64,000 bases of DNA from a virus (IMGVR_UViG_3300008954_002609:32001-96000), one strand, 5' to 3'. Positions 10,401 to 58,595 are shown, numbered from the stretch's first letter. Notes: generated from the sequence alone by a model not told the origin. Program-made: numbers and translations.

Positions 10401-13400
10401 TTGCAACGTATCTGGGGTTTCCTTGCACCTTATGATAGGATGCTGTAGTTGTTGATGAAGTTATCGAACTGTTATGCGTGGCACCAAATTGTCCCATCCT
10501 GTCAGTAGACCACTCATTTAGCGCCAGTCTTGCCATAAGGTTTCTATAATTTAGGGTATTATAAACCGAATATTGATTTGTTGCGACATCGAGACCAGGA
10601 CCACCTAAACTATCGCCCGCTGTCTCGACTCCGCCAGGGGCAGAGAATCTGTTAACAAAGACATTCTTTCTTTTCGGTCTTTCATACTTCCTTCTTTCGT
10701 TAATCTCTACGAAGTATGGAGAATTAGTTGTTGTGCCAATAGGCTCATTCGACGCAGTGCGTATCAAGAACACTGGACTCATCTCCACTGATGTTCCCTG
10801 AACTATTTCATATTCGTGCTTGTAGTTGCCGATATTTAATACTGTGTCCTTTGCGTACTCACTTGCTGTAGTCTTTATATTTCTTATATTGACTGGCCTC
10901 TTTGCCAATGGCTCCCTAAGCACTCTGGACCTATTATGGGTACTAGAGGTCAAAGACACATGAAAAGTTCCCGGTGGCTCGTGATTCAATGCATACAAAT
11001 TCGGGGAAGTAACGTACAACTGACCTTGAGACATTGTTAATGCAAACGCCTCGAATCGTCGACCCTTGTGGTCCAGGCTCATTGTTGTGTTTTGCAAGGC
11101 TGGGTCGGCTTGTGGTATCTTTGGTCTCATCATGTTCAGGTGCTGATGTCTGTGAGAGTGTCCACCCACCCAATGTTCCGTAAATGGAGACTGAATAGGG
11201 ATCTCCCTGTCGTCACCATAAGCATCTGAGTGGAGATTTGTTATGTCTATGCCCTTCTTAAAGTTATCATAAATTTCAGCCTTGTAGTCAGTTGGCACAT
11301 CTGTTGAGCTACTATACATACTAAAAGGGGCTATTGTATTAAGGTCAAAGTCAGCATTTGTGTTTGATATGTCTGCTTTGCCTCCAAGCCTCTTCTTTTC
11401 AAAAACCTCTGATCCAATGCCGTTTCCATATCTTGGATGATAAACGTCTGTGCATTCTTTTCCAAAATCAACATCGGACCCACTTATTCTAATAAAATCT
11501 TTCGCGCCAGGATTACTTGTCCCAAGAAAGAAATCCTTTTTCTTGTTTAGGTGAAAGTTGTCTCCAGCGTGCACAACAGGCTGAATTTCTGCCTTTAGTC
11601 TATATGGCTTTGTTAAGCTACGAAGAGTATAACTGGTACCTGAAACCTCAGTGTAAATTGTCCTTCTTAGCGTTTCTCTCTCGGCGTCTGTTGCAGATAT
11701 ACCAGATGATAAAGAAGTTTCTTTTCTCCCTGCTCTCTCTGACCACCACAAACAATTCTCAGTCTGCAAGGCACTGCCAGAAGGCTTGTATATGCCGGTA
11801 TGCTTGAGTAGTGGAGCGTGACCAAACTTCCAGTTATACACTAGTTCATTTATTGATTTAATTTGACCAGGTTCTGGCTCTGCTTGCTTCCCCTCCAAAG
11901 TAGGGAACTTAGCCCAGTACTTGTTTCTTTCGAGAACATGACTCTCTATCATATTCCTTATATCTTCGGAAAAATCTGCAGATGCTGGCTTCAACTGGTC
12001 TAGCATTGAAGACAGTGCCGAGTCTATCCACTTATAAAACTCAACGTACTTCTCTATGTCTGGAGTATTCTCTATTCTGTCAAAAAAGAGTTGCCTTAGC
12101 TTCTCCATTGACTTATAGTTTGGTCTGTATCTATTTACGGGCTCTCCGATTAAATTACTAAAGTCCTTTATTGTTGCAAACATATCTAACATCTCTTGAG
12201 ATATTGCCTGATACATGCTCTTTTCTATTGAAAAGTTATAATTTATCGGTTTAGAGTCTCTGGTAAATGTCTGTTCATCTCTAGACAGGACCCTAACCAT
12301 ATTCGAGCTTTGCACGTTTTCTGGTATGTTTTGTCGGGACATCTCCAGGAAAGCAACCGTCACACTGGAAGTGGAGTTTGATTGAAAGAAATCTCCGCGA
12401 CCAGGGTGGTTTGTTGCCACCACGTCACCTGCCCAGCCATAATCCCTCTTGTTTTTGAAAGAGCCAGATGTTATGTCGTCTATTATAAATTGACCACCTG
12501 TCGAAGAGCCTGTAACCGTAGTAAAATCCCAATTCAACGCAAGAGTGTCGATTGATGGGACGGGATTGTCCAATCCTGGCATAAAAGTGTACGCATTCCT
12601 CATTGGGTGAGGCACACCGTAAGCCTTTGGATCTATCGAGTGAGCTTTAATAGTCTCGTTATCTAGATAAGATAACCAATGACGCAAAGAAGAAACATGA
12701 ACGTCCGACAAAGTCTTTGTGGAGCCTGCAAAGTCTGTTCTGTGGGCTCCGGCGTACAATCTTTTAGAATATTGGTGGAACCTTTGACCTTGGGCGTTAG
12801 TTAAGGAGGATGTTAGATAAAATTTATCCTTTACCTCTCCTGCGTCTGTTCTAATTCCGTAGTACTCTATTTGATAAGAATTCGTAGATCCAGAAATCGT
12901 GTTACCAAACGTTCCCTTCGGTGCAACTCTAACTGCGAAATTCCACTTTGTTCCGTCATACACGTCATAGAATACCGGGGATTCCATTGCGGATACTATC
13001 CCAGAGGTAGACCTTATGACAAATTTTGCATTTCTAGAGTGTCGTTCGTCCTTTACAGCATAGGTCTCGAAATTCGCAAAGTCTTTTGCGCTGGCTGGCC
13101 AAGCCAAATCAGTCCCTGCTCCTTTGACAGTGTGTGCACCAAACAAGGAGCTTGATACGTTGGTGGAGATGAACCCAGGCTCGCCAGGGCGGTGTACCTT
13201 CGGAAAAACAACCTCTGCTTCCGTCGTGAAAGATAAGCCAACAGAGGAATCATTTCCGTGAGCACCAGTAATATATCCAGAAACAGGAAATTCTGAAGAT
13301 TTGTTGCCCCTCCCAAGACTGGAACTATACTGATATATGGTTGCAGAATGATTATGAGGGTGATAGAAATTTATACACCTTGTCTTAAGGCTTGATACAC

Positions 13401-15231: not shown

Positions 15232-17172
15232 TTACTTTTCTACTCTAAACTTAAAAACCTTATCTTGCACAACGTGTCTACCCTCCAGATCATAAGCAAA
15301 CTGAATACCATATGAGTAGCCAGATTCGAACAGAGACATGTTAAGGTCAAAGTAATTCCCCTTCTTATCATACGATAACTTCGTATATTTTGTCTGCTGA
15401 CCGGCAGAACCCGTCCCAAATGGTACCACGTCTAGCCGATCAATTATCCTATAAATTCGATAATATCCTTCTTTTACTATTGAAGGAGAAGTCTCGGCTG
15501 TCGCAACATTGTAAATATTTGGTTGCCAATTCCTCTCTCTAATAAAAACCCTGAATCTAACTTTGTCACTTTGTGAGTATGATTCTTTAAAATTGCTTAT
15601 ACTAGTGACATAACCTTGGATACCTGGGTTATAATCATACGCATTGTGTTTCTTTACCTTAAATACTGAACCAGTCACCAACTGTATCCCTTGAGATACT
15701 CCTGTCGGCTTACTCCAGACGTCGAATATTTCGCTTTCAGATCCTGTAAATGCAAAAGAAGCAGAATAAATGCCAGTACTGACCCAGCCTCCGGTTACAA
15801 CTGTGGCACCATCGACGGTTACGCCACCTCCTATTGGCAACGTTTTCGCCTTTATAGCTGTATTTTTTACGTTACCTGATGGAAATAACTGTAGGTTTAT
15901 TTGTGTATACGCGCTGTTGCTGCCAGAATTTCCGCCTAAGACTGGAATGTTCTTTAATTTTCCATTTACGATATTGTATAAATATAGAGTATTTAAATTG
16001 TCTTCACCTGTTAGAAGCGAGCTACTAAGATGAAAGTCTCCCCTGTCGTCACCTATTGAGTCATCCCAGCGGGCTTCAATGAGCGGTCTCTTATAGAAAT
16101 ACTCAGACCCTCTTGCGAAAAATTTCTTAGTATAATAGGACCTGTTGTATCCTCCATTCTCATACGACCCAGACATCTTAAGCATGATACCATAGTTCTC
16201 TCTATCGGGGTCCACCGTTGATTCAGCTTCTATCCATTCTTCCACCAAGGCGGTTACATTTAATTCTAAGTCTTCTGTACCTTTTTCAAAATACTTGGAA
16301 TAGTTTGGCAAATTACGGCCGGCAGTGTATCCAACTTCATGATAATCACCGCCCTCGGTGGACCATCGGATTTTACCACCGTGCTGAACCGTAGTAACAG
16401 TCAGGTGGCTAGTAGATATGTTTCCCTGGAATGATCCAGAAACTCCTGCTGATCCCGTTGTTGTGATCCTAACTGTTGCCCCTGCTGAATCATCCGTATC
16501 GTCATAAGACACAGATGCAGATAGTCCCGTTTCGTATGTTCTGATGGATCCGCTCAATATATTAGCCATCTGTTTGACTGTGCTTATACTGCCAGTGAAC
16601 GGAACCGTAATCTCTACTCCAGGCAAAGCTGCTGTGATTGCGTCGGAATCTGTTTGAAAAACAAAATTAAACCTTTTGTTATCCGCGTTATAAATAGTAA
16701 AATATTCGTTCTTGAGGTTTCCTTTTGTGGTTGTTATAAACTTTACGTCTGTTATGTTCTGCTGTAGCGTGTTTGAAGCCATAATCCAACTAGCTTCGTC
16801 ATTGTCCGTGTACTCTTCCATATCAAGACCCTGTCCCTCGTCCCAGGACCTAGAAACAGGAAGAACATGCAAATTGAATTTCTTAGGTAGGCTGTCACCG
16901 TGAGGACAATTAAACATTCTTAAGAAAAACCTTACAGACCCAGACTCAGGTATATCTCCGTTTGTTCGATCCGTGGTGATAGTATCTACAGGAAACTTAA
17001 CCAACGCTCTTGCTTTTTCTAGAGACGAAGTTGTCGATTGTCCATATATGGAAAAGACTTCTAAAATATCTGACTCACCCATATTTGACCCAGTAGCCCT
17101 CGTGGATAAGTCGTTCTTAAATGCGTTTGTAATGGTTGTGTCTGCGTTTGCAGTATATCTCTTTATAGCCAT
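15232..17172 (-). CDS. Virion protein with DNRLRE/CBM96-like domain
   Basis: Motifs ADTTI...NMG...RALVKF...SRSWDEG...W-x3-GGD...LNVTALVEEW...NYGIMLK...F-x3-S...RPLIEARW are typical of DNRLRE domains. Located between gp6 and the gp7-like gene. Confidence 0.65.
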   Translation of the reverse strand: MAIKRYTANADTTITNAFKNDLSTRATGSNMGESDILEVFSIYGQSTTSSLEKARALVKFPVDTITTDRTNGDIPESGSVRFFLRMFNCPHGDSLPKKFNLHVLPVSRSWDEGQGLDMEEYTDNDEASWIMASNTLQQNITDVKFITTTKGNLKNEYFTIYNADNKRFNFVFQTDSDAITAALPGVEITVPFTGSISTVKQMANILSGSIRTYETGLSASVSYDDTDDSAGATVRITTTGSAGVSGSFQGNISTSHLTVTTVQHGGKIRWSTEGGDYHEVGYTAGRNLPNYSKYFEKGTEDLELNVTALVEEWIEAESTVDPDRENYGIMLKMSGSYENGGYNRSYYTKKFFARGSEYFYKRPLIEARWDDSIGDDRGDFHLSSSLLTGEDNLNTLYLYNIVNGKLKNIPVLGGNSGSNSAYTQINLQLFPSGNVKNTAIKAKTLPIGGGVTVDGATVVTGGWVSTGIYSASFAFTGSESEIFDVWSKPTGVSQGIQLVTGSVFKVKKHNAYDYNPGIQGYVTSISNFKESYSQSDKVRFRVFIRERNWQPNIYNVATAETSPSIVKEGYYRIYRIIDRLDVVPFGTGSAGQQTKYTKLSYDKKGNYFDLNMSLFESGYSYGIQFAYDLEGRHVVQDKVFKFRVEK

Positions 17173-36514: not shown

Positions 36515-37132
36515 CTATACTTCCCACGTCTTATATTCTGGTTGCTTGGTTTTATTGGTGTCATGCATTCTGTATCTGTAAAATGGAACTCTCAAATGGT
36601 GAATTCGATATTTGTCGCCCAAGCGTTTTCTTAGTTCCTCTTCCTCCCTATGTCTCATCTTTGGATTATATCCACCTAGCGATAAGAACAGGTCTCTTCG
36701 ATACATTATACCACAGGATATGTTTTCATTTTCAGCATATTTTCTTTCAATGGTGTTCTCATAATCATCCACCATCAAGTAGTCCGAAGATACACAAAAT
36801 GCGTCATGGTTAGACTCTAGATATTTCTTCATAACAAACGACATATCTTTGTTAATATAATCATCGGCGTCGACTCTAAAGAAGAACTGACCTCTGGCAT
36901 TTTCAATTCCTAAGTTAGACGCTACTGCTACTCCGGAATTCTTGTCCGTCTTGAGGAATCTTATGCGATCAGCGAAGGGTCTCAGCATATCTTGCGAGTT
37001 GTCTGTACTACAGTCATCCACCACTATCACCTCAAATCTGACCCTCTCCTGATTAAGACAACTCCTCAAACACCTAGAGACATATTTGCCATAGTTGTAG
37101 TTTGTTATAATTATCGATACGTCAGGTACCAT
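36515..37132 (-). CDS. Glycosyltransferase family 2
   Basis: VSIIITNYNYG, EVIVVDDCSTD, NSGVAVASNLGI and RVDADD motifs. Confidence 0.92.
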   Translation of the reverse strand: MVPDVSIIITNYNYGKYVSRCLRSCLNQERVRFEVIVVDDCSTDNSQDMLRPFADRIRFLKTDKNSGVAVASNLGIENARGQFFFRVDADDYINKDMSFVMKKYLESNHDAFCVSSDYLMVDDYENTIERKYAENENISCGIMYRRDLFLSLGGYNPKMRHREEEELRKRLGDKYRIHHLRVPFYRYRMHDTNKTKQPEYKTWEV

Positions 37133-37845
37133 TATTCTTTCCTCCGATTTAATATTTCGATTTCCTTGATTAGGTTTTTAAACTGTTTAAGAGATCCGTG
37201 ATCAAAAGACCCCAAGTGCCCTCCCTCAAACCTTGATTGTGCAAAAATGTTCTCACTATAATGCTTCTCTAATATGGTAGCACCGCTGAAATATGCTTTC
37301 AATGGGGCGGCGATGCCGACGGAGTGGTCACTATATCCGCGATACCCATATCTCTTAAATTCTTTTGGCATATTTTTCAAGTTATCATCGTGCAAAAAAG
37401 TTGGATACCTGGATACACAAAATAAGTAAGATATCTTCTCACTGTGTCCGAATGGAAATTCACCAATAGCACATTGTCCGGTGGATATGATTGTCGGTTT
37501 ATTCTCTTTTAAGATAGCTTCGCATAAATCTGGATCTTCTTTTACGGTTCTACTTGCTATCTTGTGCCTATCAAATCCGAGGTTCCGCAGCCAATCCAAT
37601 CTCTCTTTATCAAAGGGTGTAGCCATCAGTGGTATACCAAGATTATCACAAAAGTCCTTGAGGGATGCAAGTGTTTGGTAGTCGATGTCCCTGTATTCTC
37701 TTTCAGTGTTTCCAAAAAATGCCACAGAATCCATTAACTGAACTTTCACAACATCTGCTCCTGCGGACCATGCATTTAGTGACATTCTTTTTAGTTCTTC
37801 CAGCGAGCCATGGTGCTGGTTACAAAGATCAACTATTATTTCCAT
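37132..37845 (-). CDS. neuB: NeuB/SpsE-family nonulosonic acid (sialic acid-like) synthase, lacking the C-terminal SAF domain
   Basis: NQHHGS, GADVVKVQ, ATPFD, KIASR, IISTG, CVSRYPT, GYSDHS and ILEKH motifs; 237 aa. Confidence 0.88.
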   Translation of the reverse strand: MEIIVDLCNQHHGSLEELKRMSLNAWSAGADVVKVQLMDSVAFFGNTEREYRDIDYQTLASLKDFCDNLGIPLMATPFDKERLDWLRNLGFDRHKIASRTVKEDPDLCEAILKENKPTIISTGQCAIGEFPFGHSEKISYLFCVSRYPTFLHDDNLKNMPKEFKRYGYRGYSDHSVGIAAPLKAYFSGATILEKHYSENIFAQSRFEGGHLGSFDHGSLKQFKNLIKEIEILNRRKE

Positions 37846-47841: not shown

Positions 47842-48702
47842 CTATTTCAAACTACTGATATATTCTAAAAGCGGAGCAGCCGCTTCTTCTGGGTGTTGCC
47901 AATCCCAAGAAAACTTAAATTGCTCATGTGTCTTCCTTATTAAATCTTCGAATTCTTCTTCCTTGTCTTCAAACTCTTCAACGTAAGCCAGCTTAGTCAG
48001 CGGGGTCCACTCCACCAATAATGCATCTATCTTCTTGTAAAACCCCGTCTCAAATAGCTTCGAAATAATATCATATTCGGTGCCCTCTATGTCTAGCTTT
48101 AAAATCACAAATTCTTTTTTAAGGTCTAGGCTTTCCTTCATCCAGGAAACTAAATCAACCGATTCAACGTCAACCGAATCGTACAAGAGATGTTCATTTT
48201 TAAAAAATCCGGTGCGTATGAGTTTTCTAAATATCTCTCCGTTGATTGGAGTGAATGCAGAAAGCCTCTCATCTTCCTTTTCGAGTTCTTCTTGTTCCTC
48301 CAGATTCTCATTCATTCTATATTTTAAATCTACATACATCTTCTTTCCTGGATTGTTGGGGTCGGGTAGACATACTGCGATTTGGCCAAAGAACCCTATT
48401 TGCTTTATAATCGATTCTTTAAATCTATGAAGAGAGGACCCAGTTCTTGACCCCCAGTTTTGCAGATAAAACTTCTTTTTAGATTTTTCTATATCAACTG
48501 CGTTGTTGTGAACCGTTAGCGTTCCTTTTTCAATTAATTCAGAATTTGCTTCTTCTATGGCTTTTGAAAGTTTCGGATTTGCCTCAAAACAGTCAATCTT
48601 CAATTCACATCCTGGTATAGGAGAGAGGTACCTCCAAGCCCATTGGGCTGACTGTCCAATATTTGCGCCGCAGTCAATAAATCTAATTATTTTCTTTTTC
48701 AT
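47842..48702 (-). CDS. FkbM-family methyltransferase with an insertion of about 80 aa
   Basis: FIDCGANIGQS, FEANP, GSSL, LKLDIEGTEY, VEW. Start at the ATGA overlap at 48702. Confidence 0.85.
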   Translation of the reverse strand: MKKKIIRFIDCGANIGQSAQWAWRYLSPIPGCELKIDCFEANPKLSKAIEEANSELIEKGTLTVHNNAVDIEKSKKKFYLQNWGSRTGSSLHRFKESIIKQIGFFGQIAVCLPDPNNPGKKMYVDLKYRMNENLEEQEELEKEDERLSAFTPINGEIFRKLIRTGFFKNEHLLYDSVDVESVDLVSWMKESLDLKKEFVILKLDIEGTEYDIISKLFETGFYKKIDALLVEWTPLTKLAYVEEFEDKEEEFEDLIRKTHEQFKFSWDWQHPEEAAAPLLEYISSLK

Positions 48703-49646
48703 AATCTGTAATGTTCTTTCATCCACTGGACCGTTTCCCACACACCCTCTTCCAAGGTGACAGTGTTCTTGTGGTCCAGATCCATCACAGATTTTGATGC
48801 ATCTACATGCTTATGTTTTGTTGTTAATATTTCCGAATGTTCTCGGTAATCAACTAGCGAGGGGTCTGCTTTTGTGTACTTTACTAACGTCTCAGCCAAA
48901 AGCTCAATAGTGTGCTCTTGATCTGAAGCTATATTATATGTTTTTCCGTCAATGAAGTTGTCTGCAATATTAGCCAATGTTCTTACACTGTCATAGATAT
49001 ATGTGCTAGTCCTAGTATGCCCTTTAAAGACGGTTATGGGCTTTCCGTGCAGAAGATTGTAGGTGAACAAGCAGTTTACACTTCGAAAGGGGTGAAACCA
49101 TTCGCCGGGACCATATGTGTTGAAGAACCTTACCAACACAGTTTCTGTCCCAAAGTGCTCCCTGGAATTGTGAACCTGCATCTCGTTAACCCTCTTACTC
49201 ATCGCATAATCATTCATTTGAATAATAGGGGTCTGACTTAAGACGTCTTCGTACATAACACCCTCATAATCACCGTAAACCTCTGATGAAGAACAATGGA
49301 CAAGCTTAAATTTATGTTTTTCCTGAAGCCTAATAATGTGCTTCATTCCTATAACGTTTGATTTCCAAACCTTTTCATAGAAGTTTTCGCCATTCCAGCG
49401 ACCGAATTCCGCTGCACAGTTGTAGACCAGGTCTGGTTTAACGTACTCTATGATCTGTTCTATTTGCCTAAACTCTCCAATATCACATCGAAAGTAGTTG
49501 TCGTCAGCAACTTTACCTAGACCGTGACCATAATTCCTATTAGTATGATAGAGGTCAACACCAAAAACTTCATGTCCTCTAATTTTTAATATCTCTTCGA
49601 GCTTGCTGCCGATTACTCCCAAGACACCTGTAACTAAAATCTTCAC
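48699..49646 (-). CDS. NAD-dependent epimerase/dehydratase
   Basis: VTGVLGVIG, SSSEVYG, YAMSK, RFFNTYGPGE. Confidence 0.92.
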   Translation of the reverse strand: MKILVTGVLGVIGSKLEEILKIRGHEVFGVDLYHTNRNYGHGLGKVADDNYFRCDIGEFRQIEQIIEYVKPDLVYNCAAEFGRWNGENFYEKVWKSNVIGMKHIIRLQEKHKFKLVHCSSSEVYGDYEGVMYEDVLSQTPIIQMNDYAMSKRVNEMQVHNSREHFGTETVLVRFFNTYGPGEWFHPFRSVNCLFTYNLLHGKPITVFKGHTRTSTYIYDSVRTLANIADNFIDGKTYNIASDQEHTIELLAETLVKYTKADPSLVDYREHSEILTTKHKHVDASKSVMDLDHKNTVTLEEGVWETVQWMKEHYRL

Positions 49647-51272
49647 TTATTTTCTCCTCTTGACCAAGAGACCTTGCTCATAAAAATATAAATAATCTAT
49701 TTCTGTGCCCAAGTAGCAGTTTATAGCGTGCTCTGGGGTTTCGCAAATAGGCTCCCTGTCATTAAAACTTGTATTAAGTAGGATTGGAACCCCACTCTTA
49801 TCATACCATTTTTTGATAAAATTGTAATACCATTTATTATCATTTTCTGTAACGGTCTGAAGTCTTGCTGATCCGTCGAAATGAACTACAGCTGGGACCT
49901 TGTCCCTCTTTTCTTTTTTAAATTTTAATACGAAACTCATGTATGGGCTGTCTTTCTCCTTTTCAAACCAGTTAACGGCTTCCTCTCTTAGGATAGATGG
50001 TGCAAAAGGGCGGAACCATTGCCTATGCTTGACCTTATCATTGATAATTCCCTTCATGTCTTCGCTTCTAGGGTCTGCGAGAATACTTCTGTTTCCCAGA
50101 GCACGTCGGCCGGATTCGGAGCCTCCCCCAAAGACGGCTACTATTTTTTGATCATCGAGAAGATCCACTACGTCCTCATCAGTAACTTTGCTGTACTCTA
50201 TCTCCTTATTTCTATCCTCTAGTGTCTTCTCGACTAGGTCAGAGTGGTCACAGCCAAGATATGGGGTGTAATTGTCTTCCCATATTATTCTCGGATTATC
50301 AAGTATCTGGTGCCATAAAAACTGTGCAGAACCCAAGGTAAGACCACCATCATGAGGGGTCGGTGTTACATAAACGTTTTTATCAGGGAACCAATCCAAA
50401 ATCTTCCCCATTGCTACAGAGTTCAAAGAGACGCCGCCAGCAAAGCAGATATTCTTATGTTGGGGGTGCTTCTCCAAGAACATAGTTAACAACTCCCTAA
50501 GATATGTTTCAGTTGCCATTTGTAGACCTGCTGCTAGGTCGAATTGTTCCTGCTCTCCCTTTTTCGCTATATCCGCCCATCGCCATAAGTATGGGTGCCT
50601 AGGGTCGGTTCCGACATTAGCACCGCGTGGCTGACCTGGTGGCTTGAATGAAACCGCAGCTGAGTCCTTCCTGAACATCTTCAAAAAATCTGAAAAATAT
50701 TTCTTTCCATCTCCCATGCAAGCCATAGCCATAACAGACCCAGCCTGGTGACCTCTTGGCCACCCAGACTGCAATCCAAAGACGTACCTTGTTACTCTAG
50801 TCCATACACCTCCGATGTTTACGTCAGTAATTGGAAAAGCATGTACTGGTGATATTTTATTATCTTTTCCCTCCCAGACTGTGAACGCTGTTATGTTACC
50901 GCCCTCTGACTCAAAGCCTCCTCCGTCCATTGTAAAAATTAATGCGTCTTCATGATTGCTGGAAAAGAATGCATTCGCGGCATGTGCCTGGTGGTGACCA
51001 ATCGCATACATCTGTCCCCCATTTCTCTCAATGATATCCCTTAATTTATTAAGTGAGTCGGGATGATCACTTAACTTAGAAAAAGAATAATTGGTCGCAA
51101 AGTATTTAATATCTTGATGAGCAAGATATTCATCGAACATAAATTGAACTCCATCTCCTGCTGGCTCCTTTTCTCTTATATATCTCTCGTATTCTGCATG
51201 TACTATCGGTATTCCGTTGTCCAATATACAAAATGAACAATCATGACCTGACCATGCGCTAGCTACTTTCAT
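49647..51272 (-). CDS. Carbamoyltransferase (NodU/CmcH/TobZ family)
   Basis: GHD, ERYIREK, HHQAHAANAF, DGGG, AGGVSLN, DGG, RALGNRSILADP, KHRQWFRPFAP, HFDGSARLQTV, LLNTSFN. Confidence 0.95.
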   Translation of the reverse strand: MKVASAWSGHDCSFCILDNGIPIVHAEYERYIREKEPAGDGVQFMFDEYLAHQDIKYFATNYSFSKLSDHPDSLNKLRDIIERNGGQMYAIGHHQAHAANAFFSSNHEDALIFTMDGGGFESEGGNITAFTVWEGKDNKISPVHAFPITDVNIGGVWTRVTRYVFGLQSGWPRGHQAGSVMAMACMGDGKKYFSDFLKMFRKDSAAVSFKPPGQPRGANVGTDPRHPYLWRWADIAKKGEQEQFDLAAGLQMATETYLRELLTMFLEKHPQHKNICFAGGVSLNSVAMGKILDWFPDKNVYVTPTPHDGGLTLGSAQFLWHQILDNPRIIWEDNYTPYLGCDHSDLVEKTLEDRNKEIEYSKVTDEDVVDLLDDQKIVAVFGGGSESGRRALGNRSILADPRSEDMKGIINDKVKHRQWFRPFAPSILREEAVNWFEKEKDSPYMSFVLKFKKEKRDKVPAVVHFDGSARLQTVTENDNKWYYNFIKKWYDKSGVPILLNTSFNDREPICETPEHAINCYLGTEIDYLYFYEQGLLVKRRK

Positions 51273-51991
51273 TTAAATACTCCTGCAATTAATATGTCTA
51301 AATCCGTACAGTATCTAAAACTGTATTTTTGATTTATAGATTTTAGAGACTCTAATGTCTTTTCAATTGTTGGCCAACCTGGGGTGCCCATCATCCTAAT
51401 ATCATCTATTAAGATCATATGATTTTTCTCTTTGTGTTTTCCTATTTCTTCAATTTCCTGAATTAGCGGGCAATGCCCGTATATTTCAGAGGTGTGCGTG
51501 TTCGCTTGTGATTCTGCCGCATCATTAATGCGACCTGAAAAGTGAGCATCCAGAAAGAACACGCACCTCTTATCAGACTCTGGTCTCTTGTCTATCTCTG
51601 AAAGAATTTCCGGCAATATTTCTGGAGATTCTCCGTGAAATAGTTTTACATTTTTTCTTACCGGATGTTGGGTCCTGATTAAAGAATGTTGAAAGCAACT
51701 CTCTTGAGCCTCTATAGACCAATTGTATAAAAAGTTAGGAGACACGGACATTAGGGTCTCTGCCAAATAAGTTCCCGTTTCTACAAAAAAACCTATATTT
51801 GATATCTCTGGTAAACTAGAAATTAAAAACGCCTTACCATAAACGCAATGCGTGCCACTTCTAGACACGTCACTTTCAAAGCCCTTCTTTGTGTCTAAGC
51901 GACCATCCTTCATGAAATGATGTTTCATTCTTTCCTGGAAGCCCTCATCGGGGTCATTGTCGATACTGAAGAATGTTATCTCTTCTTTCAA
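51269..51991 (-). CDS. Methyltransferase-fold protein
   Basis: FVETGTYLAET, SIE, GESPEILP, FFLDAHFSG, ILIDDIR. Confidence 0.7.
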   Translation of the reverse strand: MKEEITFFSIDNDPDEGFQERMKHHFMKDGRLDTKKGFESDVSRSGTHCVYGKAFLISSLPEISNIGFFVETGTYLAETLMSVSPNFLYNWSIEAQESCFQHSLIRTQHPVRKNVKLFHGESPEILPEILSEIDKRPESDKRCVFFLDAHFSGRINDAAESQANTHTSEIYGHCPLIQEIEEIGKHKEKNHMILIDDIRMMGTPGWPTIEKTLESLKSINQKYSFRYCTDLDILIAGVFK

Positions 51992-51992
51992 C

Positions 51993-52502
51993 CTAATCTC
52001 CTTTTATGATTCGGTAAGAATCTGAATCAAAATGCTGAGTCGAAAATTCATACAACTCTGAGTCTTCTAGGGCTTCCATTTGGTGTCTCAATCCCCTATA
52101 AATGTGAAGTGCATCGCCGGGGTTCATGATTGATTCTTCCGCTTTTTCTATATCATCTTCATCCGAAAGTCTTACTAGTAATTTCCCGGAATGAAGAAAG
52201 AAGACCTCATCCTTTAATTTGTGATAATGCCAAGAGCACTTCTTTCCCTTATTGAAGAAGAGCAGCTTCCCGCAGTACTCTTCTTTGTTCACAATCCACA
52301 TTTCGTGGCCCCAGCCTTTCCTTATATATTGTGGAAACTGCCAAGTTTTCATAAAGAGCGGCTCCTTATGCTCATTCTTTTTAACGTACTTTATCTCATA
52401 AAATGTGGGAGCGGGTGCCTCACTCTCCTTGTCTAATGTCCAATGGCGGTCCTTTTTCTTGTCTTCGCCTTTGTCTTTTTCGCTATTTGAAGAATCTGAC
52501 AT
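51993..52502 (-). CDS. Cupin protein (sugar or sugar-phosphate isomerase-like)
   Basis: KGWGHEMWI...YCGK...SWHYHKLKDE...GLRHQM...EFST gives H-x-H-x4-E and H cupin metal ligands. Confidence 0.8.
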   Translation of the reverse strand: MSDSSNSEKDKGEDKKKDRHWTLDKESEAPAPTFYEIKYVKKNEHKEPLFMKTWQFPQYIRKGWGHEMWIVNKEEYCGKLLFFNKGKKCSWHYHKLKDEVFFLHSGKLLVRLSDEDDIEKAEESIMNPGDALHIYRGLRHQMEALEDSELYEFSTQHFDSDSYRIIKGD

Positions 52503-52800
52503 CTCTTATTCCTTTATCATCCACATAGACATCTCCTGCTGGCTTGCCCAAGAATAAATCATTATATTTGACACCCCACTTGTTTAACTGATTCCTTGTT
52601 AGGTCATAAAACATTTTATACGATAACATGACGTCATTCTTTGTTCGACCCATACCTCGTGCAGTGTGAAATATTATTGTATTTCCCGAATCATAAAGCT
52701 CATTGATTTTATCTATTCGATCTTGTATCGGGACACTGTTGTTGTAATCGCTGTTCTCGGTATGGCAAATGGTCTCGTCTATATCAAAAACATAAATCAC
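52483..52800 (-). CDS. Minimal HAD-family phosphatase
   Basis: VFDIDETIC, HTARG, GKP, YVDDK are HAD motifs I-IV; 105 aa. Confidence 0.88.
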   Translation of the reverse strand: MIYVFDIDETICHTENSDYNNSVPIQDRIDKINELYDSGNTIIFHTARGMGRTKNDVMLSYKMFYDLTRNQLNKWGVKYNDLFLGKPAGDVYVDDKGIRDVRFFK

Positions 52801-53582
52801 TTAACGTCCTCCAATGATACCACGTAATTGCCAAACTTTTTAACCGAAATTGCAGCACACTTGTTTGCAAATTCTATTGCGATGGGAAAGGAAAAGAAGG
52901 ACATGTATGCTGTAACAAATGCTGCCAGGAATGTGTCTCCTGCCCCACAAACATCAAAAACCTTGGCAGGTTCTGTTTCAAATTCTCGTCCGCGCCAAGA
53001 TGCGCCGCGAGAACCCAAAGTTACAATCATTTCAGAATTGATAGGTTGCTTTTCTATTTTTGAAAATTCTAGTTCGTTTAACTTGATTATACAATCTTCA
53101 TAACATGATAAATCTGTCTTTTTTGAATCAACAAAGATTACACAATTTTCCCCCCTCAGAGAGTCAATGATCTTGTTACAATTCTTATTACAGATGAACC
53201 CCTTATCATAATCTGATATTACTACACAATCATACTCAAATCCTGATTTTTTTACCGTTTCTATGAGGCTCTCGCTCATCGGGGGAAGCCTATTTGCCTC
53301 ACCTGCATCTACCCTAAGAAGGTGCTGCATTGTCTTTTCATCGACAAACCTCTCCTTTATTATTTCTTTTGTATTGGTCAGGACTCTCGTATCGTGCCCA
53401 AAAGACTCCAGATTCCTCTGAACATTCAATACCATGCCAGGCTTATCCTCAATGCGTGAGGTTTTAAGCACTGGAACAGGCGCTTCTGGGCTTATCCTGT
53501 CGCAAGTTCCATAGTTATACCTGTCTATGCAGGAGTCACCTATTATCAATATCTTGAATGATTTGAGTTGTTGAATATCCAT
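52797..53582 (-). CDS. hldA: D-glycero-beta-D-manno-heptose-7-phosphate kinase (HldE/RfaE kinase domain, PfkB family)
   Basis: ILIIGD, RISPEAPVPV, LLRVD, VISDYDKG, TLGSRGA, DVCGAGDTF. Confidence 0.9.
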   Translation of the reverse strand: MDIQQLKSFKILIIGDSCIDRYNYGTCDRISPEAPVPVLKTSRIEDKPGMVLNVQRNLESFGHDTRVLTNTKEIIKERFVDEKTMQHLLRVDAGEANRLPPMSESLIETVKKSGFEYDCVVISDYDKGFICNKNCNKIIDSLRGENCVIFVDSKKTDLSCYEDCIIKLNELEFSKIEKQPINSEMIVTLGSRGASWRGREFETEPAKVFDVCGAGDTFLAAFVTAYMSFFSFPIAIEFANKCAAISVKKFGNYVVSLEDVK

Positions 53583-53934
53583 CTAAATAATTAAAGATTA
53601 TCACCGAATTACACAAGTCTTTTCCAATTACTTGATCTTCGGTATAGTCTCCACCCTTTACAATAATGTCAGGCTTTATTTTTTTTACTAACTCTAGCGG
53701 AGTATCTTCGTCAAAAATAATTACTTTATCAACATATCTACATGACTCCAGTAAAAATTTTCTATCTTTTTGTGAAAAGATTGGTCTTGACGATCCCTTG
53801 AGCCTTCTAACGCTAACATCACTGTTCAGTCCGACAATCACCCTTCCATATGCCTTACAAAATTTTAATAATTCTATATGACCTCGGTGGACAATATCGA
53901 AGCATCCGTTAGTAAAGATTTTCTTTTTAGCCAT
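53536..53934 (-). CDS. hldC: Heptose-1-phosphate adenylyltransferase (HldE/RfaE nucleotidyltransferase domain)
   Basis: FTNGCFDIVHRGH, VGLNSD-x-SVRRLKG-x2-RP, FDEDTP, VKGGDY, GYSTT. Confidence 0.92.
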   Translation of the reverse strand: MAKKKIFTNGCFDIVHRGHIELLKFCKAYGRVIVGLNSDVSVRRLKGSSRPIFSQKDRKFLLESCRYVDKVIIFDEDTPLELVKKIKPDIIVKGGDYTEDQVIGKDLCNSVIIFNYLDGYSTTQIIQDIDNR

Positions 53935-53941
53935 GAATGCA

Positions 53942-54775
53942 TTATAACAGAGTATCTAGTACTTTGTCAACTATTTCTTTTTCATTGTGATTGTTTACTT
54001 CAGATGCGCACTCTTCGCATTTTATCTTAAGTCCGCATGGTTCGTGATTTCCAATATTTATATTAATATTCTGAGGATATGCAACCATGTCCTCAGACTG
54101 GTACCCTGTTATTATCACTAGCGACTTCGTATCTACAGTCGTGGCCGCGTGAACAAGACCACCTTCGGTACTGAGGAACATTTCAGATTCTCCTATAAGA
54201 ATCGCCGCTTCTCTGAAAGATGTTTTACCCCTGTAATCGATTACGTTTTCTAAGAGTGGGCTCGACGTGCTTCCTATTTGCACAATCTGTATATGGTCCT
54301 TCAACACATTCACTATACTTTGCCACTTACTTAGTGGGTATGCTCTGTTTGGTGTGTAGTTTGTTTTTGAATAAGGTTCTATAGTTACAAATCTATCCCC
54401 TAGTTTATCTGTGAGGTCTTTTACTTTCTCTCTTTCTCGATCAGTAAAGAACATTTCACATCTAAGTTCTGGATCTTCTATTCCGTAGACTTCGCACATT
54501 TGTTCGATTATATGCTTGTCTTTCCTGTGGTAGGCTTTTATTGGTGTGTCTGTTTTGCAATAATTCGCTTCCGGGTTATTCATAAACATCGGAAACGCCT
54601 CATCTCCATCTCCAGTTTTGTATATATTTGGATTATTTTCAAACACTGGGCTTCTGATAAGTTTTGTTACGTTTTTGCCGTCTCCTTCGCATGGAAGGAC
54701 TTTGACTTTCTCTGGTAGCTTCTTCTTTAACTCTCTTGCTACTGCTGTCCAGGCAAGATAACCTCCTAAGCCCAT
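53942..54775 (-). CDS. Glycosyltransferase family 9 (heptosyltransferase-like)
   Basis: C-terminal RGKTSFREAAILI...STEGGLVHAA matches GT9. N-terminal MGLGGY lacks the Asp of the usual GxGD motif. Adjacent to hldC/hldA. Confidence 0.7.
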   Translation of the reverse strand: MGLGGYLAWTAVARELKKKLPEKVKVLPCEGDGKNVTKLIRSPVFENNPNIYKTGDGDEAFPMFMNNPEANYCKTDTPIKAYHRKDKHIIEQMCEVYGIEDPELRCEMFFTDREREKVKDLTDKLGDRFVTIEPYSKTNYTPNRAYPLSKWQSIVNVLKDHIQIVQIGSTSSPLLENVIDYRGKTSFREAAILIGESEMFLSTEGGLVHAATTVDTKSLVIITGYQSEDMVAYPQNININIGNHEPCGLKIKCEECASEVNNHNEKEIVDKVLDTLL

Positions 54776-54779
54776 AATC

Positions 54780-55751
54780 CTACTCGCAATACTTTATCAT
54801 TAAATCATACGCATCATTTGCATATCTCTCGTATCCGGCGTGTTGCAGTATATATTCTCTAGGCGACAATGGCATAGGAATCTCTCCACCTAGAAACTGC
54901 TTTATCTTCTCGATATAAGGCTGGGCAGAGTCATCATTTCTTTTTAGATACTTTTCTGTCATTCTATCAGTTCCGTGAACCCAAAAATTCTGATCAAATA
55001 TGCTGGGCGTATTATGAGGAGATCCGATTACTGGCACATCTAAAAACATGGCTTCATAAGTCGCTATTCCTGGACACTCATCTAAGCTAAGGTTGATGCA
55101 ACATTTTGACTTCAATAAGGCATCAAAATATTCTTCTCTTTTATAGTCTCCGTAAGTTAGTTCAATATAGGATATCTCGTTGTTTTCAAGACCTTCGATT
55201 ATACCATCATGAAAATTAAAATAATTATCATCATATCTTCGCCTCTTCGAGTAGACAAGGCAATCATATTCTATATTCTTATTGTTTATCAAATCTGGGT
55301 CAATATCGAAGGTTACACATTTATCTAGAAAATCAGCTCTGTGTACCTGGTCTTTTGGTAAGAATTTCTTTACATGATCGTTATAATACTTAACTTGGTC
55401 AATGTATAGATCGAACTCAACATTCTCAACAAACCACTTGTCCCACGAGTCAGCAGGACCAATGTCTGGATAATCTAATAAAACATTCGGTCCAAAAACA
55501 AACTTCTTTTTTGGAAATGCTTTTTTCAAATTAGCATAAAGATTGGGATCAAAACCCTTCGCATAAAACCAGAAAACGTCAGTCCGATTAATGTCATAGT
55601 TTTCTTTAAGCTTCCAAAGCTCTTTCACATCAAATCTATCATGTTTATCTTGATTGAGTGCGTCCACATGATGGCTAAAAGTCAGCCCAGGGCCGCGGTC
55701 GCCCCCAGGTCGAGAGCACATTAGAATATTAAACTTCTTATAGGTAGTCAC
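54780..55751 (-). CDS. GT-B fold glycosyltransferase
   Basis: RGPG, FGPN, and LSLDECPGIATYEAMFLDVPVI (E-x7-E). Confidence 0.75.
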   Translation of the reverse strand: MTTYKKFNILMCSRPGGDRGPGLTFSHHVDALNQDKHDRFDVKELWKLKENYDINRTDVFWFYAKGFDPNLYANLKKAFPKKKFVFGPNVLLDYPDIGPADSWDKWFVENVEFDLYIDQVKYYNDHVKKFLPKDQVHRADFLDKCVTFDIDPDLINNKNIEYDCLVYSKRRRYDDNYFNFHDGIIEGLENNEISYIELTYGDYKREEYFDALLKSKCCINLSLDECPGIATYEAMFLDVPVIGSPHNTPSIFDQNFWVHGTDRMTEKYLKRNDDSAQPYIEKIKQFLGGEIPMPLSPREYILQHAGYERYANDAYDLMIKYCE

Positions 55752-56508
55752 TTATTGGAAGCTCCTTTAGCCTCGCATGTGGCTTCTTTTGTTTCAACTC
55801 CGCCTCTATGCGTAACTGGTCTGCCCTATGCACTCTGTCCACTGCTAGAGGATTCTCCCTATTGTATACATAAGTGATTCTCTTAACTGGGTGAAAGTGA
55901 TTTGGTCCTGCCATCTCTACCATGGGATACATTATCACCCGGTCCCACGTAAATTTATAAAAGTCACCATCACTATCCAGCATGTCTTCTTTGTTGATGC
56001 TCATAAACAATTCTTTTCTGAATGTCCTTAGATGAGAGAGCGTCCACTCCTTGTGTCTTATGTTCCCTTCCCAATAATCGTCCGTAACTTTGGGTCTTAC
56101 AATTTTGCCACCTACCGACTCGATATAGGATCCTGCAGTTATCCAAACTTTTGGATTTTGATATATTTCATTTAAGTGTTGGAGAACATACCTGTTTGCT
56201 AGCCAGTCATCGCCATCTAGAGCCAGTATTATAGATCCAGGCTTTGCACAGTCCACCGCTTGATATAAGTTGGTCAAAGCCCTTACATTTTGTCGGTTAT
56301 GTTGTATTGTCAACTGACCGGGTCTCGACTCCCTGAATTCTTGAAATAGAGCGTCTGCACGCTGACCAGTCATATCAGAAGATGCATCGTTTATGAACCG
56401 AATATCATAATTCCCATAATCCTGCTTTATAGCTGAGTTTATATTCTTCTCTACCCACGACTCATTGTTATAGGACAAGATAACTATTGTGAAGTGATTT
56501 TCTATCAA
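55738..56508 (-). CDS. Glycosyltransferase family 2
   Basis: SYNNESWVEKNINS, INDASSD, LDGDDWL, SHLRTF, YVYN. Start probably the TTG at 56508 (TTGA overlap); the track uses 56523. Confidence 0.9.
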   Translation of the reverse strand: MIENHFTIVILSYNNESWVEKNINSAIKQDYGNYDIRFINDASSDMTGQRADALFQEFRESRPGQLTIQHNRQNVRALTNLYQAVDCAKPGSIILALDGDDWLANRYVLQHLNEIYQNPKVWITAGSYIESVGGKIVRPKVTDDYWEGNIRHKEWTLSHLRTFRKELFMSINKEDMLDSDGDFYKFTWDRVIMYPMVEMAGPNHFHPVKRITYVYNRENPLAVDRVHRADQLRIEAELKQKKPHARLKELPISDYL

Positions 56509-58595
56509 AATGCATTCTCCCAAAAATACGAAGGTCTAGATTTTAGATATTCAACAACTTCTTTATAGTCCTTATTGAACCATTCCTCGTCGCGGTGTTG
56601 CACATTATCGTTAATCTCCAATTGACAACCAAGAAGCTTTGCCTCAATTACCAACCTTGGACAAGTATCTAAGCCGCCGGGCTTGAAACACAATCCACGG
56701 GATAAGGAAAGTTTCTTTAGAAATTCCATAGGTTCTACTCCCCACAAAACTTCGTATTCATAACTCTTCTCTTTGCACCAGTCCTCTGATTCTTGTGCGC
56801 CCTTGACCCAACTATCTGACCCTAAGACGACCCATTTGCTGCTTCTCTTCTTCTTTGATTCTTCTCTAAGGTTGTCAATCAATTCAAAGAAATTCTCAGA
56901 AAAAAGAGAAGACAGTACATGCAAGTTTTCAGTATTAGACAAATCTAGAGATTCTATGTGTATCTTCTTCTGATTCTCTGACATAAAGAACACAGATTTT
57001 GCGTTCTCTGCAAAATCTTTTAATCTCTTTCCCTGTTCTGTGCTGGAGTATTCGCACTTTTCTCCCTCGACCATCTCGTAAAGAGTTGGATTCCTGTGTT
57101 TGCAAAACTTATAATCAAACTCAATAAATGAATATTCTATATTTAGTTTTTTTATTGCCTCAAAGGCTTCTGGTTTCATATTCGCGATATTACCAAAAAC
57201 CCATTTTGCATCTTTGTGATCTGTCAACAACTCTTCAGTAAGCATTTGAGAATTGACTGCTCCTAATTTGTCAGAAGGAGCAGACTCAATTATGGTTTGA
57301 AGACTCATTTCCGCGCCTCCAGCATACTGACTAGCGAACATATCGCTGACATAGATGTATTCTGGGGGGTGTAAAATATTTTCCGGAAGAACAGCTTCTA
57401 GCATTCTACTTTGGATCTTTTCTTCTGAAAAGTTTTCTAGTACATGCTTTTGTAGCTTCTTAGCCCAAGACAAGTACATCCCATGATTGGTATACATCGC
57501 TCTTATTTTCTTTTTAAAGTCAACCTTGTTTGGGTAGCACCACATAGTACCTTCATGTATGATGTTTTTCCAAACAGCTTCCTTTGGAATAGGAGCTAGA
57601 ACATAATCAACACGAGCAAATAATGGCTTCCTCTTTGTCTTTCCCTTCTTATTTCTAACAGGTGCATACAAGAAATCCAAATGGCCGCTCCAACCTGGCG
57701 CAACTACTGGGAGCCCGTTACAGGCTGCTTCGAATAGAGGAAGTCCATATCCTTCACCGTGTGTTGCGCTAATTATCGCTTTAATCTTCGGATGAGTATA
57801 TAGTGAATTTAATTCTTCTCGGGTCATATCGCCGTGAAGGAAGTATATTTTGCACTTTCTATCTTGAAACTCTTTCTGACTCAATAGCATTTCAAGATTG
57901 CGTTGTGTCATTCGTCGGTCCATTATAGAATTCTTTGAGGTATTTGTTTTCACGACCAAACCAACTTCTTGATTCTTAAATTCGTCAACAAACCACCTTA
58001 TCGTGTTTTCGAGGTTCTTTCTCACAGACCATTGAGCTATTACCAAAAAGTTGAATTCTGTATCAACTTCTAAATTAAAATCTTCATCTTTGTCCAGACT
58101 GCCCACTGGGTAATGAACCACGTCGATTGGCGCTCCGCAACCCAATATTTTCTTTTCACCTTCTTCGTTCTGGAATTCATACTTGGAGTTTTCAAACCCC
58201 CACTTTGCGAATTCCGATGGGACAACAATCTTATTCATGGTATAGCTCTTCTCTATCCATGCTGGAGCTACCTTTGTTGTTTCTATTCCTGCGGTGACGG
58301 TGACTGCATAGGGAGCCAGTCTGTTAAACTCGTTAGGTATTCCCACTCTGATATGGAAATCAAAATTCCTCTGATCTTCAGGTAGAGATGTGAGTTTATG
58401 CATCAATTGATCCATCCACTCTCTTTCTTCTGTGTCGCCTAATAACCAAGAGGTTGTTCCCCAATTTAAGGGAGACAGATAAATGTCTAGAAGATCGTCC
58501 CTCTTTCTGAGTGACCTCAACACCAATCTCGTATGTTCCCCGTATCCCGACTGAGTGAGAGCGGGTCCCTCTACTATAACTTTATATTTCTTCAT
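56505..58595 (-). CDS. Two-domain glycosyltransferase (GT4 plus a second GT-B domain)
   Basis: TQSGYG, RKN, THGEGYGLPLFEAA in the N-terminal part; GGAE and DTCPRLVIEAKLLGC in the C-terminal part. Start at the ATGA overlap at 58595. Confidence 0.88.
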   Translation of the reverse strand: MKKYKVIVEGPALTQSGYGEHTRLVLRSLRKRDDLLDIYLSPLNWGTTSWLLGDTEEREWMDQLMHKLTSLPEDQRNFDFHIRVGIPNEFNRLAPYAVTVTAGIETTKVAPAWIEKSYTMNKIVVPSEFAKWGFENSKYEFQNEEGEKKILGCGAPIDVVHYPVGSLDKDEDFNLEVDTEFNFLVIAQWSVRKNLENTIRWFVDEFKNQEVGLVVKTNTSKNSIMDRRMTQRNLEMLLSQKEFQDRKCKIYFLHGDMTREELNSLYTHPKIKAIISATHGEGYGLPLFEAACNGLPVVAPGWSGHLDFLYAPVRNKKGKTKRKPLFARVDYVLAPIPKEAVWKNIIHEGTMWCYPNKVDFKKKIRAMYTNHGMYLSWAKKLQKHVLENFSEEKIQSRMLEAVLPENILHPPEYIYVSDMFASQYAGGAEMSLQTIIESAPSDKLGAVNSQMLTEELLTDHKDAKWVFGNIANMKPEAFEAIKKLNIEYSFIEFDYKFCKHRNPTLYEMVEGEKCEYSSTEQGKRLKDFAENAKSVFFMSENQKKIHIESLDLSNTENLHVLSSLFSENFFELIDNLREESKKKRSSKWVVLGSDSWVKGAQESEDWCKEKSYEYEVLWGVEPMEFLKKLSLSRGLCFKPGGLDTCPRLVIEAKLLGCQLEINDNVQHRDEEWFNKDYKEVVEYLKSRPSYFWENAF

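Follow-up and report, generated by a model that had tools for sequence, protein, structure and literature searches.

The window analysed here is a 64,000-nt stretch (positions 32,001 to 96,000) of the linear, 104,467-bp IMG/VR contig IMGVR_UViG_3300008954_002609, and it carries a compact row of five genes (51993-54775, minus strand) encoding a GT9-like glycosyltransferase, an HldC-type adenylyltransferase, an HldA-type kinase, a minimal HAD phosphatase, and a cupin. Gene sets of this kind are widespread in phages and have in part been described. The present one is ordinary among them; it comes from a lineage that is not one of cyanophages, and neither GmhA nor GmhB, two enzymes of the bacterial ADP-heptose pathway, is encoded with it. 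The explanation that we favour, at a strength just short of even, is that the cupin, HldA, the HAD protein, and HldC form a nucleotide-heptose route and that the GT9-like protein transfers the resulting sugar.

A sugar-activation module without GmhA or GmhB

All genes of the window lie on the minus strand. The row begins with the gene for the 277-aa GT9-like protein (53942-54775), which matches PF01075 at 29.2 bits (cut-off 22) and is followed after a gap of 7 nt by the gene for the HldC-type heptose-1-phosphate adenylyltransferase (53536-53934, 132 aa), whose match to TIGR02199 reaches 156.8 bits (E 3e-46) with near-full-length coverage and which falls in phrog_7878. Next come the genes for a short HldA-type PfkB sugar-phosphate kinase (52797-53582, 261 aa; TIGR02198 168 bits, E 2e-49; phrog_8133 1e-83), a minimal capless HAD phosphatase of the EcbF/BcbF type (52483-52800, 105 aa; TIGR01689 53.6 bits), and a metal-type monocupin (51993-52502, 169 aa; Cupin_2 32 bits, Lyx_isomer 19.4 bits). 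This gene order is the one given in a first-pass annotation of the window, made from the sequence alone, and as stated there the last four genes overlap: from the coordinates, hldC and hldA share 47 nt, hldA and the HAD gene 4 nt (GTGA), and the HAD gene and the cupin gene 20 nt.

Profile searches across the contig gave no match to SIS (PF01380), SIS_2 (PF13580), GmhA (TIGR00441), or GmhB (TIGR00213); the genome search for gmhA that the first-pass annotation had proposed thus returned no GmhA-type match within the contig. The contig is itself incomplete, which weighs against reading too much into this result. CheckV puts its completeness at 37%, a value that looks too low because its relatives by large terminase subunit (TerL) have genomes of 185-203 kb; the figure is probably an underestimate, with a true completeness of about 55%. 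As the contig is a fragment, we examined complete relatives. TerL is 65-87% identical to its counterparts in five complete IMG/VR genomes of 185-203 kb (G001, G017, G020, G021, and G024), and the region listed with this observation lies on the contig outside the window (L087:15119-16705, genome G000). The nearest cultured phages by TerL, at 42%, are Microcystis phage Mel-JY01 and Flavobacterium phage immuto, while cyanomyovirus TerL is 31% identical, and by this sequence comparison the phage is placed in an uncultured lineage and not in the Kyanoviridae. None of the five complete lineage relatives has SIS_2, and GmhB was found in none of five complete viral genomes, four of which are the TerL-confirmed relatives G001, G017, G020, and G021, all carriers of the module. 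SIS_2 is likewise absent from the complete genomes of P-SSM2, S-CAM3, and Sf-CH5, and among 50 viral records with the cupin, six of which are complete, none has an SIS_2 match above the cut-off. With no such gene in the contig and SIS_2 absent from five complete relatives, the earlier claim that the module lacks GmhA and GmhB is upheld. Many hosts could not supply the first step, because a GmhA-like gene is present in only about 17 of 81 picocyanobacterial genomes; the one such gene that was checked sits in an HddA-GmhA-HddC-GmhB operon.

In the pathway that we propose, the cupin, a putatively metal-dependent relative of phosphomannose isomerase (PMI) and D-lyxose isomerase, would convert host sedoheptulose-7-phosphate to D-glycero-D-manno-heptose-7-phosphate. 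The short PfkB kinase HldA would then phosphorylate O1, the 105-aa capless HAD protein would strip the distal 7-phosphate, and HldC would add AMP, after which the adjacent GT9-fold enzyme would transfer the sugar to an acceptor without the usual Asp base. The kinase and adenylyltransferase steps are assigned here at the level of the protein family, and the phosphatase step from synteny and a fusion protein. A methyltransferase-like protein, a carbamoyltransferase, and a short-chain dehydrogenase/reductase (SDR) encoded beside the module probably decorate or epimerise the sugar. We also advance, with some reserve and at somewhat less than an even chance, the broader proposal that the cupin family and the mini-HAD are non-homologous replacements for GmhA and GmhB, that they define a second nucleotide-heptose route in phages and in a clade of HldE-positive bacteria without GmhA, and that the GT9 protein works without its Asp. 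As an isomerase, the cupin family may perhaps also act on fructose-6-phosphate.

Candidate enzymes for the phosphatase and isomerase steps

All four HAD motifs can be read in the translation of the small HAD protein (DIDET, HTAR, GKP, and DD), arranged as in the EcbF/BcbF class of capless proteins of about 105-130 aa, and the protein aligns end to end with PDB entries 9iqw (1e-12) and 1xpj (4e-9). Against TIGR01689 it does not reach the subfamily cut-off (162). We counted neighbours within a 10-kb radius in 80 viral loci found via the cupin: a HAD gene is present in 67 of them, hldC in 55, and hldA in 50. The HAD gene directly adjoins the cupin gene in 51 of these loci. The strongest evidence for a role at the GmhB step comes from the Synechococcus phage SynMITS9220M01, in which the product of gene 206 is a fusion of a HAD domain to an HldC-like domain (HAD::HldC) and its N-terminal half is 42% identical to the HAD protein of the window. 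The fusion gene lies in a four-gene unit (SynMITS9220M01_204-207, L178:12923-16002) that encodes a GHMP kinase, a GmhA-like SIS protein, the HAD::HldC fusion, and an SDR, and that is shared by 80 viral loci (L205-L284), 69 of which have no cupin within 10 kb. As far as can be judged from family membership, this unit holds all four nucleotide-heptose activities. It is therefore a well-supported prediction, drawn from synteny and fusion, that the mini-HAD is the candidate GmhB-step phosphatase, which would remove the distal 7-phosphate. The earlier suggestion that the small HAD replaces GmhB thus gains in that this protein is the best candidate for the step, while the replacement itself is something that we still infer.

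The cupin has a folded core at residues 58-169, modelled with a predicted local distance difference test score (pLDDT) above 90, preceded by a disordered, K/E/D-rich stretch at residues 1-50 (pLDDT <50). This N-terminal extension is kept in close relatives, while most family members have 113-125 aa and are without it, and an internal start at Met51 would give a cupin of the usual 119 aa. Judging from the model, the extension may be a start-codon artefact: relatives keep it, yet it is disordered. The family is large, with 5359 clusters at 90% identity, and H92, H94, K97, E99, and H140 are invariant in 36 cupin sequences, forming a motif (H-x-H-x-x-K-x-E...H) whose spacing equals that of L-ribose isomerase. 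Weak matches to PF07385, the D-lyxose isomerase family, were obtained for 29 of 36 family members; the cupin of the window falls just under the cut-off (20.8 bits), and a bacterial orthologue reaches 21.2 bits. The nearest bacterial paralogues, which score 54-80 bits against the family profile, include proteins above the cut-off of the type II PMI family PF01050. In structural comparison, the best matches (VIA Z) are the CapF cupin domain at 16.5, the PMI of T. kodakarensis at 14.8, and D-lyxose isomerase at 14.0. The cupin thus shares with the cupin-fold aldose-ketose isomerases (PF01050, PF07385, L-ribose isomerase, PDB 7zvy) the HxH...E...H metal-site pattern with a Lys at position -2 relative to the Glu, a monocupin architecture, weak profile matches, and fold similarity at Z 14-15, and the substrates of those enzymes are manno- or lyxo-configured. 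It differs from them in an identity of only about 20%, in scores under the Pfam cut-offs, and in forming a large family of its own.

Gene context points in the same direction. Natural fusions join the cupin to HldA (P0248) and to a PfkB kinase (P0253), and because 69 of the 80 SIS loci have no cupin within 10 kb, SIS and cupin appear to share one slot in two parallel four-step units. In kinase-free viral loci, a cupin 70-73% identical to that of the window can lie directly after a NeuA-like gene and a short, SAF-less NeuB-like gene, as at L051 (8439-10333; 73%), a setting that from its gene content would fit an isomerase forming mannose-6-phosphate and would not fit a 4-keto-sugar epimerase. 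As an observation in its own right, this locus, in which a mini-HAD gene lies 2.2 kb downstream of the NeuA-NeuB-cupin row, resembles a nonulosonate route of the KDN type; there, mannose-6-phosphate would come from the cupin, and the HAD protein would remove the distal phosphate. True orthologues of the cupin (50-61% identical) were found in Binatia-type metagenome-assembled genomes (MAGs) and in one finished chromosome, and we compared presence and absence across 121 genomes of this Binatia-type class. A bifunctional HldE is encoded in each of the 16 genomes with a cupin orthologue, and none of these 16 has a GmhA of at least 100 bits, compared with 73 of 80 other HldE-positive genomes; when the unpublished genome G215 is left out, the count is 0 of 15. 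We consider it probable that the cupin belongs to a PMI-like class of sugar-phosphate isomerases, and about an even call at best that it acts as the sedoheptulose-7-phosphate isomerase in this module. Of the earlier wording "isomerase or epimerase", it is accordingly the first half towards which the evidence leans, while the epimerase alternative keeps some standing.

Several observations weigh against a heptose route that starts with the cupin. The anticorrelation between cupin and GmhA in bacteria is probably that of a single clade, and in the same clade an alternative isomerase supply could come from a fusion of a PfkB kinase to a SIS domain (584 aa, L171:1246-3000, minus strand, in genome G052, with similar frames in G053 and G054). 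Literature searches on a cupin sedoheptulose-7-phosphate isomerase, on cupin, heptose, and phage in combination, and on PDB 9IQW found nothing relevant. Many cupins are fused to FkbM methyltransferases (P0241, P0252, and P0254-P0259), and GDP-mannose 4,6-dehydratase (GMD) is the constant neighbour of the cupin in bacteria. Cupin and SIS occur together in SynMITS9220M01 and lie side by side in 11 of the 80 SIS loci. Moreover, G024, a complete genome of the phage's own lineage, has a cupin-SDR-GMD-SDR row and no heptose kinase (L186:3910-7072), and in structure the cupin comes closest to the CapF cupin domain (Foldseek E 6e-8; root-mean-square deviation 3.2 over 121 residues).

Some of these points would suit a cupin that is a CapF-like C3 or C3/C5 epimerase of a nucleoside diphosphate (NDP)-4-keto-6-deoxy sugar, with the first step left to host GmhA or another enzyme. 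HldA, the HAD protein, and HldC would then still make NDP-heptose, and the 4-keto sugar would come from the neighbouring SDR of the 4,6-dehydratase type. The CapF fold match, the adjacency of cupin and GMD in most Binatia loci, and the kinase-free row of G024 all agree with this, as do the SDR gene beside the cupin in P-SSM2 and S-CAM3 and the HddA-cupin-HddC-reductase-dehydratase row of SynMITS9220M01, a phage with a separate SIS gene; we take the HddA-cupin-HddC row to resemble the gene logic of GDP-6-deoxy-heptose in Campylobacter. The C-terminal domain of S. aureus CapF (Cap5F) is also a metal cupin and cooperates with an SDR in a sugar pathway; there, however, the two are fused and the substrate is a UDP-4-keto sugar, while here the cupin stands alone, is coupled to a HAD protein and a kinase, and is 19-20% identical. 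The usual neighbour of the phage cupin is a HAD gene, an SDR gene adjoining it in only 14 of the 80 loci, and in the window two genes lie between cupin and SDR; no cupin::SDR fusion was seen among 19 longer homologues, and the HldA::cupin fusions would have to join non-consecutive enzymes. Cupins that are 63-76% identical serve ADP-type, GDP-type, and NeuB contexts, and a substrate free of nucleotide therefore fits better. The specific matches of the cupin are to the D-lyxose isomerase and PMI families. Cupins of the RmlC/FdtA type appear neither among its Pfam matches (E up to 0.01) nor among its top 50 folds, an absence that is not proof. With most picocyanobacterial hosts lacking GmhA as well, we regard the epimerase as an unlikely explanation, though one to be taken seriously.

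Another possibility is that the cupin is a plain PMI that turns fructose-6-phosphate into mannose-6-phosphate and that the activated sugar is a hexose. In that case the HldA-like kinase would form mannose-1,6-bisphosphate, the HAD protein would take off the 6-phosphate, and HldC would make NDP-beta-mannose, and the cupin may in addition feed a NeuB-like synthase. Both enzymes that define the module as heptose-related score under their NCBIfam equivalog cut-offs (345 bits for TIGR02198, a model of 315 positions, and 181.5 bits for TIGR02199), and because of this the activated sugar could be mannose and not heptose, a further point against the proposed pathway. Near-identical cupins stand beside GMD without a kinase in G024 and beside NeuA-NeuB in L051, and mannose-6-phosphate would be expected in both. 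No type I PMI was found in five of the 16 Binatia-type genomes with the orthologue (G052, G207, G231, G175, and G199), in which the only PF01050-like match is the cupin itself, directly upstream of GMD (L168:9995-11516), so that the cupin is the sole PMI-like gene found there. The window also has a short NeuB-like gene of its own (37132-37845), and the cupin could serve this branch as well. Despite these points, the kinase and the nucleotidyltransferase both match best to the heptose-specific RfaE domains, with the E-values given above, and a gene of the GT9 heptosyltransferase fold lies immediately upstream. A kinase-phosphatase route is moreover the hallmark of heptose activation, mannose being normally activated via a mutase. 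For these reasons we consider hexose activation improbable, and we retain the nucleotide-heptose route as the preferred account of the module.

The GT9-like protein and the flanking glycan island

The AlphaFold2 model of the GT9-like protein has a pLDDT of 92.9, and its closest folds (VIA Z) are PDB 3tov (21.5), WaaF (19.0), TibC (17.7), and WaaC (16.7), the five solved GT9 enzymes spanning 16.6-21.5. Two plant NDH-PSI supercomplex chains also match at 15.8-16.3, and the next fold reaches 11.5. Together with the Pfam match above the cut-off, the model indicates that the 277-aa protein has a GT-B fold of the GT9 type. It starts with MGLGGY, of which MGLGG is nearly invariant across the family. 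From the alignment ranges alone, residue 1 of the model aligns to residue 9 of WaaC and residue 106 of TibC, so that strand beta-1 is absent, and G5 takes the position of WaaC D13 and TibC D110, the latter a residue with a role in catalysis (PMC4358343). Conservation of this Gly reaches at least 90%. The donor-site motif is retained, with a Glu where WaaF has Asp (STEGGLVHAA, compared with NDSGLMHVAA in WaaF). Near the C-terminus, H244, C247, C253, and C256 are invariant and H263 is nearly so, and by analogy with the Cys4 iron finger of TibC the first four may be a metal finger, an assignment that we offer as a lead.

The observation that this GT9 protein lacks the catalytic Asp of WaaC and TibC proved correct, with Gly in its place, and it holds for the whole family. 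A dead enzyme, or a module that is a decaying remnant without a product, would account for the loss of the Asp base and for the missing strand beta-1. The family, however, comprises at least 368 related clusters of about 275-285 aa; its mean column identity is 65%, many polar residues and Cys/His are invariant, and the Gly and the MGLGG start are nearly invariant in it; the loss of the Asp therefore appears, from these sequences, to be a family trait and not decay. The genes of the module are all intact, overlapping, and conserved in complete genomes, and we consider decay or inactivity very improbable. A truncated GT9 gene was also considered and can be set aside, as the whole family has this length. 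Kdo2-lipid A is an unlikely acceptor.

The autotransporter heptosyltransferases TibC and AAH (the BAHT family) offer a comparison for such a reduced enzyme. TibC and the phage protein have in common a GT9-fold catalytic domain, a reduced N-lobe, and a Cys/His cluster of the C-lobe in the region of the TibC finger, and they differ in that the phage protein has no N-terminal beta-barrel, has Gly for Asp-110, and has an H/C/C/C set in place of Cys4.

Downstream of the cupin lies a gene for a 240-aa protein (51269-51991) that gave no match in the Pfam scan; its language-model neighbours are clusters of S-adenosylmethionine (SAM) methyltransferases (0.96), and it is probably a class I SAM methyltransferase, a suggestion that we treat as a lead only. 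A homologue is encoded at the equivalent position in another viral locus (L017). It is followed by a NodU/Nol-type carbamoyltransferase (49647-51272; Carbam_trans_C 208 bits, Carbam_trans_N 64 bits), a type of gene that also adjoins the module in P-SSM2 and S-CAM3, and by a 315-aa SDR of the nucleotide-sugar dehydratase/epimerase type (48699-49646), which matches Epimerase at 130 bits, TIGR01181 at 111 bits, and the heptose 6-epimerase family TIGR02197 at 72 bits. In G024, an orthologue of this SDR is present upstream of the cupin row, along with genes for a UDP-GlcNAc 2-epimerase and a UDP-glucose dehydrogenase-like protein. Upstream of the GT9 gene, the window encodes a 323-aa protein of no assigned family (54780-55751) and a GT2 glycosyltransferase (55738-56523; Glycos_transf_2 59.6 bits), and both genes keep this position in the closest relatives. 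The whole row of nine genes, from GT2 and the 323-aa protein through GT9, hldC, hldA, HAD, and cupin to the carbamoyltransferase and the SDR, with the methyltransferase-like gene in its place after the cupin in the window, is kept at 70-94% identity in L004 and L005, the latter from G001, the closest relative.

The glycan island around the module extends over about 27 kb. The short NeuB-like synthase mentioned above (237 aa, minus strand) lies within it, and in the PDB it matches pseudaminic acid synthase (3e-19) and sialic acid synthase (4e-16). Elsewhere in the window, an open reading frame (ORF) of 3590 aa (4459-15231, minus strand) has 10.3% Ser and 15 SGS motifs, and a neighbouring ORF of 646 aa (15232-17172) has 5. 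An idea that SGS peptides serve as the acceptor of the GT9 protein was set aside, as nothing ties the SGS motifs to this protein.

Spread of the gene set and comparison with known systems

The module is not unique to this virus. The Prochlorococcus phage P-SSM2 has the row HldC-HldA-HAD-cupin (gp309-312) in an identical order and with overlapping genes, and by BLASTP the proteins of the window are 35% (HldC, gp309), 42% (HldA, gp310), 48% (HAD, gp311), and 61% (cupin, gp312) identical to their counterparts there. All four proteins fall in existing PHROGs (7878, 8133, 1238, and 7851, at 1e-27 to 1e-83), the cupin DNA matches cyanomyoviruses, and the four-gene order is present in hundreds of marine viral contigs. 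Clusters of the P-SSM2 type were described as lipopolysaccharide (LPS) genes by Sullivan et al. in 2005 (PMC1079782), and Iyer et al. in 2021 outlined clusters that hold cupin-fold sugar isomerases, PfkB kinases, HIGH nucleotidyltransferases, and HAD phosphatases (PMC7824862). A framing in terms of LPS and ALPK1 found no support in our analysis. The phage module also turns up, at 60-75% identity, in marine contigs assigned to cellular MAGs (L090, Candidatus Pelagibacter sp. TMED166, and L091-L101), with assignments that include Pelagibacter, Thaumarchaeota, Halobacteriovorax, and Planctomycetaceae, among others; these are probably phage contigs that were binned into cellular MAGs.

Public annotation of these genes is systematically mislabelled. 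In P-SSM2, gp311 (L003:7337-7681, 114 aa) is annotated as a "phosphoheptose isomerase" and gp312 (L003:7000-7356) as a "cysteine dioxygenase", and the label "putative nucleotidyltransferase" has also been put on the cupin. The first label, given to the mini-HAD in GenBank and for phrog_1238, names the wrong fold, because the protein is a HAD, as seen from its four motifs, its alignment with 9iqw and 1xpj, and a match to the PHROG of the T4 PNK phosphatase. The second, given for phrog_7851, can be discarded as the function of the cupin, since cysteine dioxygenase is one of many cupins at Z of about 14 and all gene contexts are those of sugar metabolism. Thousands of entries, in which a "phosphoheptose isomerase" is a HAD protein or a "cysteine dioxygenase" is a sugar-pathway cupin, could be corrected on this basis.

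Taken alone, the instance described here adds one more member to a known gene set, from a lineage other than that of cyanophages, together with an Asp-less GT9 variant that travels with the module. If the cupin is indeed an isomerase, the ADP-heptose pathway would have a second, analogous enzyme for its first step and one more phosphatase, both of which ocean viruses encode very commonly. The module would then tie glycan synthesis by the phage to sedoheptulose-7-phosphate of the host pentose-phosphate pathway or Calvin cycle, in hosts that are mostly unable to make heptose.

Among known systems, the nearest are the cyanomyovirus sets of P-SSM2 (gp308-313, T4-GC 303-308), S-CAM3, and Sf-CH5, which have the same four genes along with a Nol-like carbamoyltransferase and an SDR; unlike in these phages, the module here has a GT9-fold transferase directly attached, and the cupin bears its disordered N-terminal extension of 50 aa. 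The SynMITS9220M01 unit shares the small HAD family, an HldC-like nucleotidyltransferase, and the gathering of four predicted activities in one operon, but there the kinase is of the GHMP and not the PfkB type, SIS fills the isomerase slot, and the HAD domain is fused to the nucleotidyltransferase. With the bacterial pathway to ADP-L-glycero-beta-D-manno-heptose (GmhA, HldE or HldA with HldC, GmhB, and HldD, followed by WaaC and WaaF), the module has in common a homologous kinase and adenylyltransferase (RfaE domains I and II), a four-step logic, and a transferase of the GT9 fold. It differs from that pathway in that HldE is split, that the GT9 protein lacks the Asp base, and that a cupin and a HAD protein of the TIGR01689 type stand where bacteria have the SIS-type GmhA and the HAD-IIIA-type GmhB.

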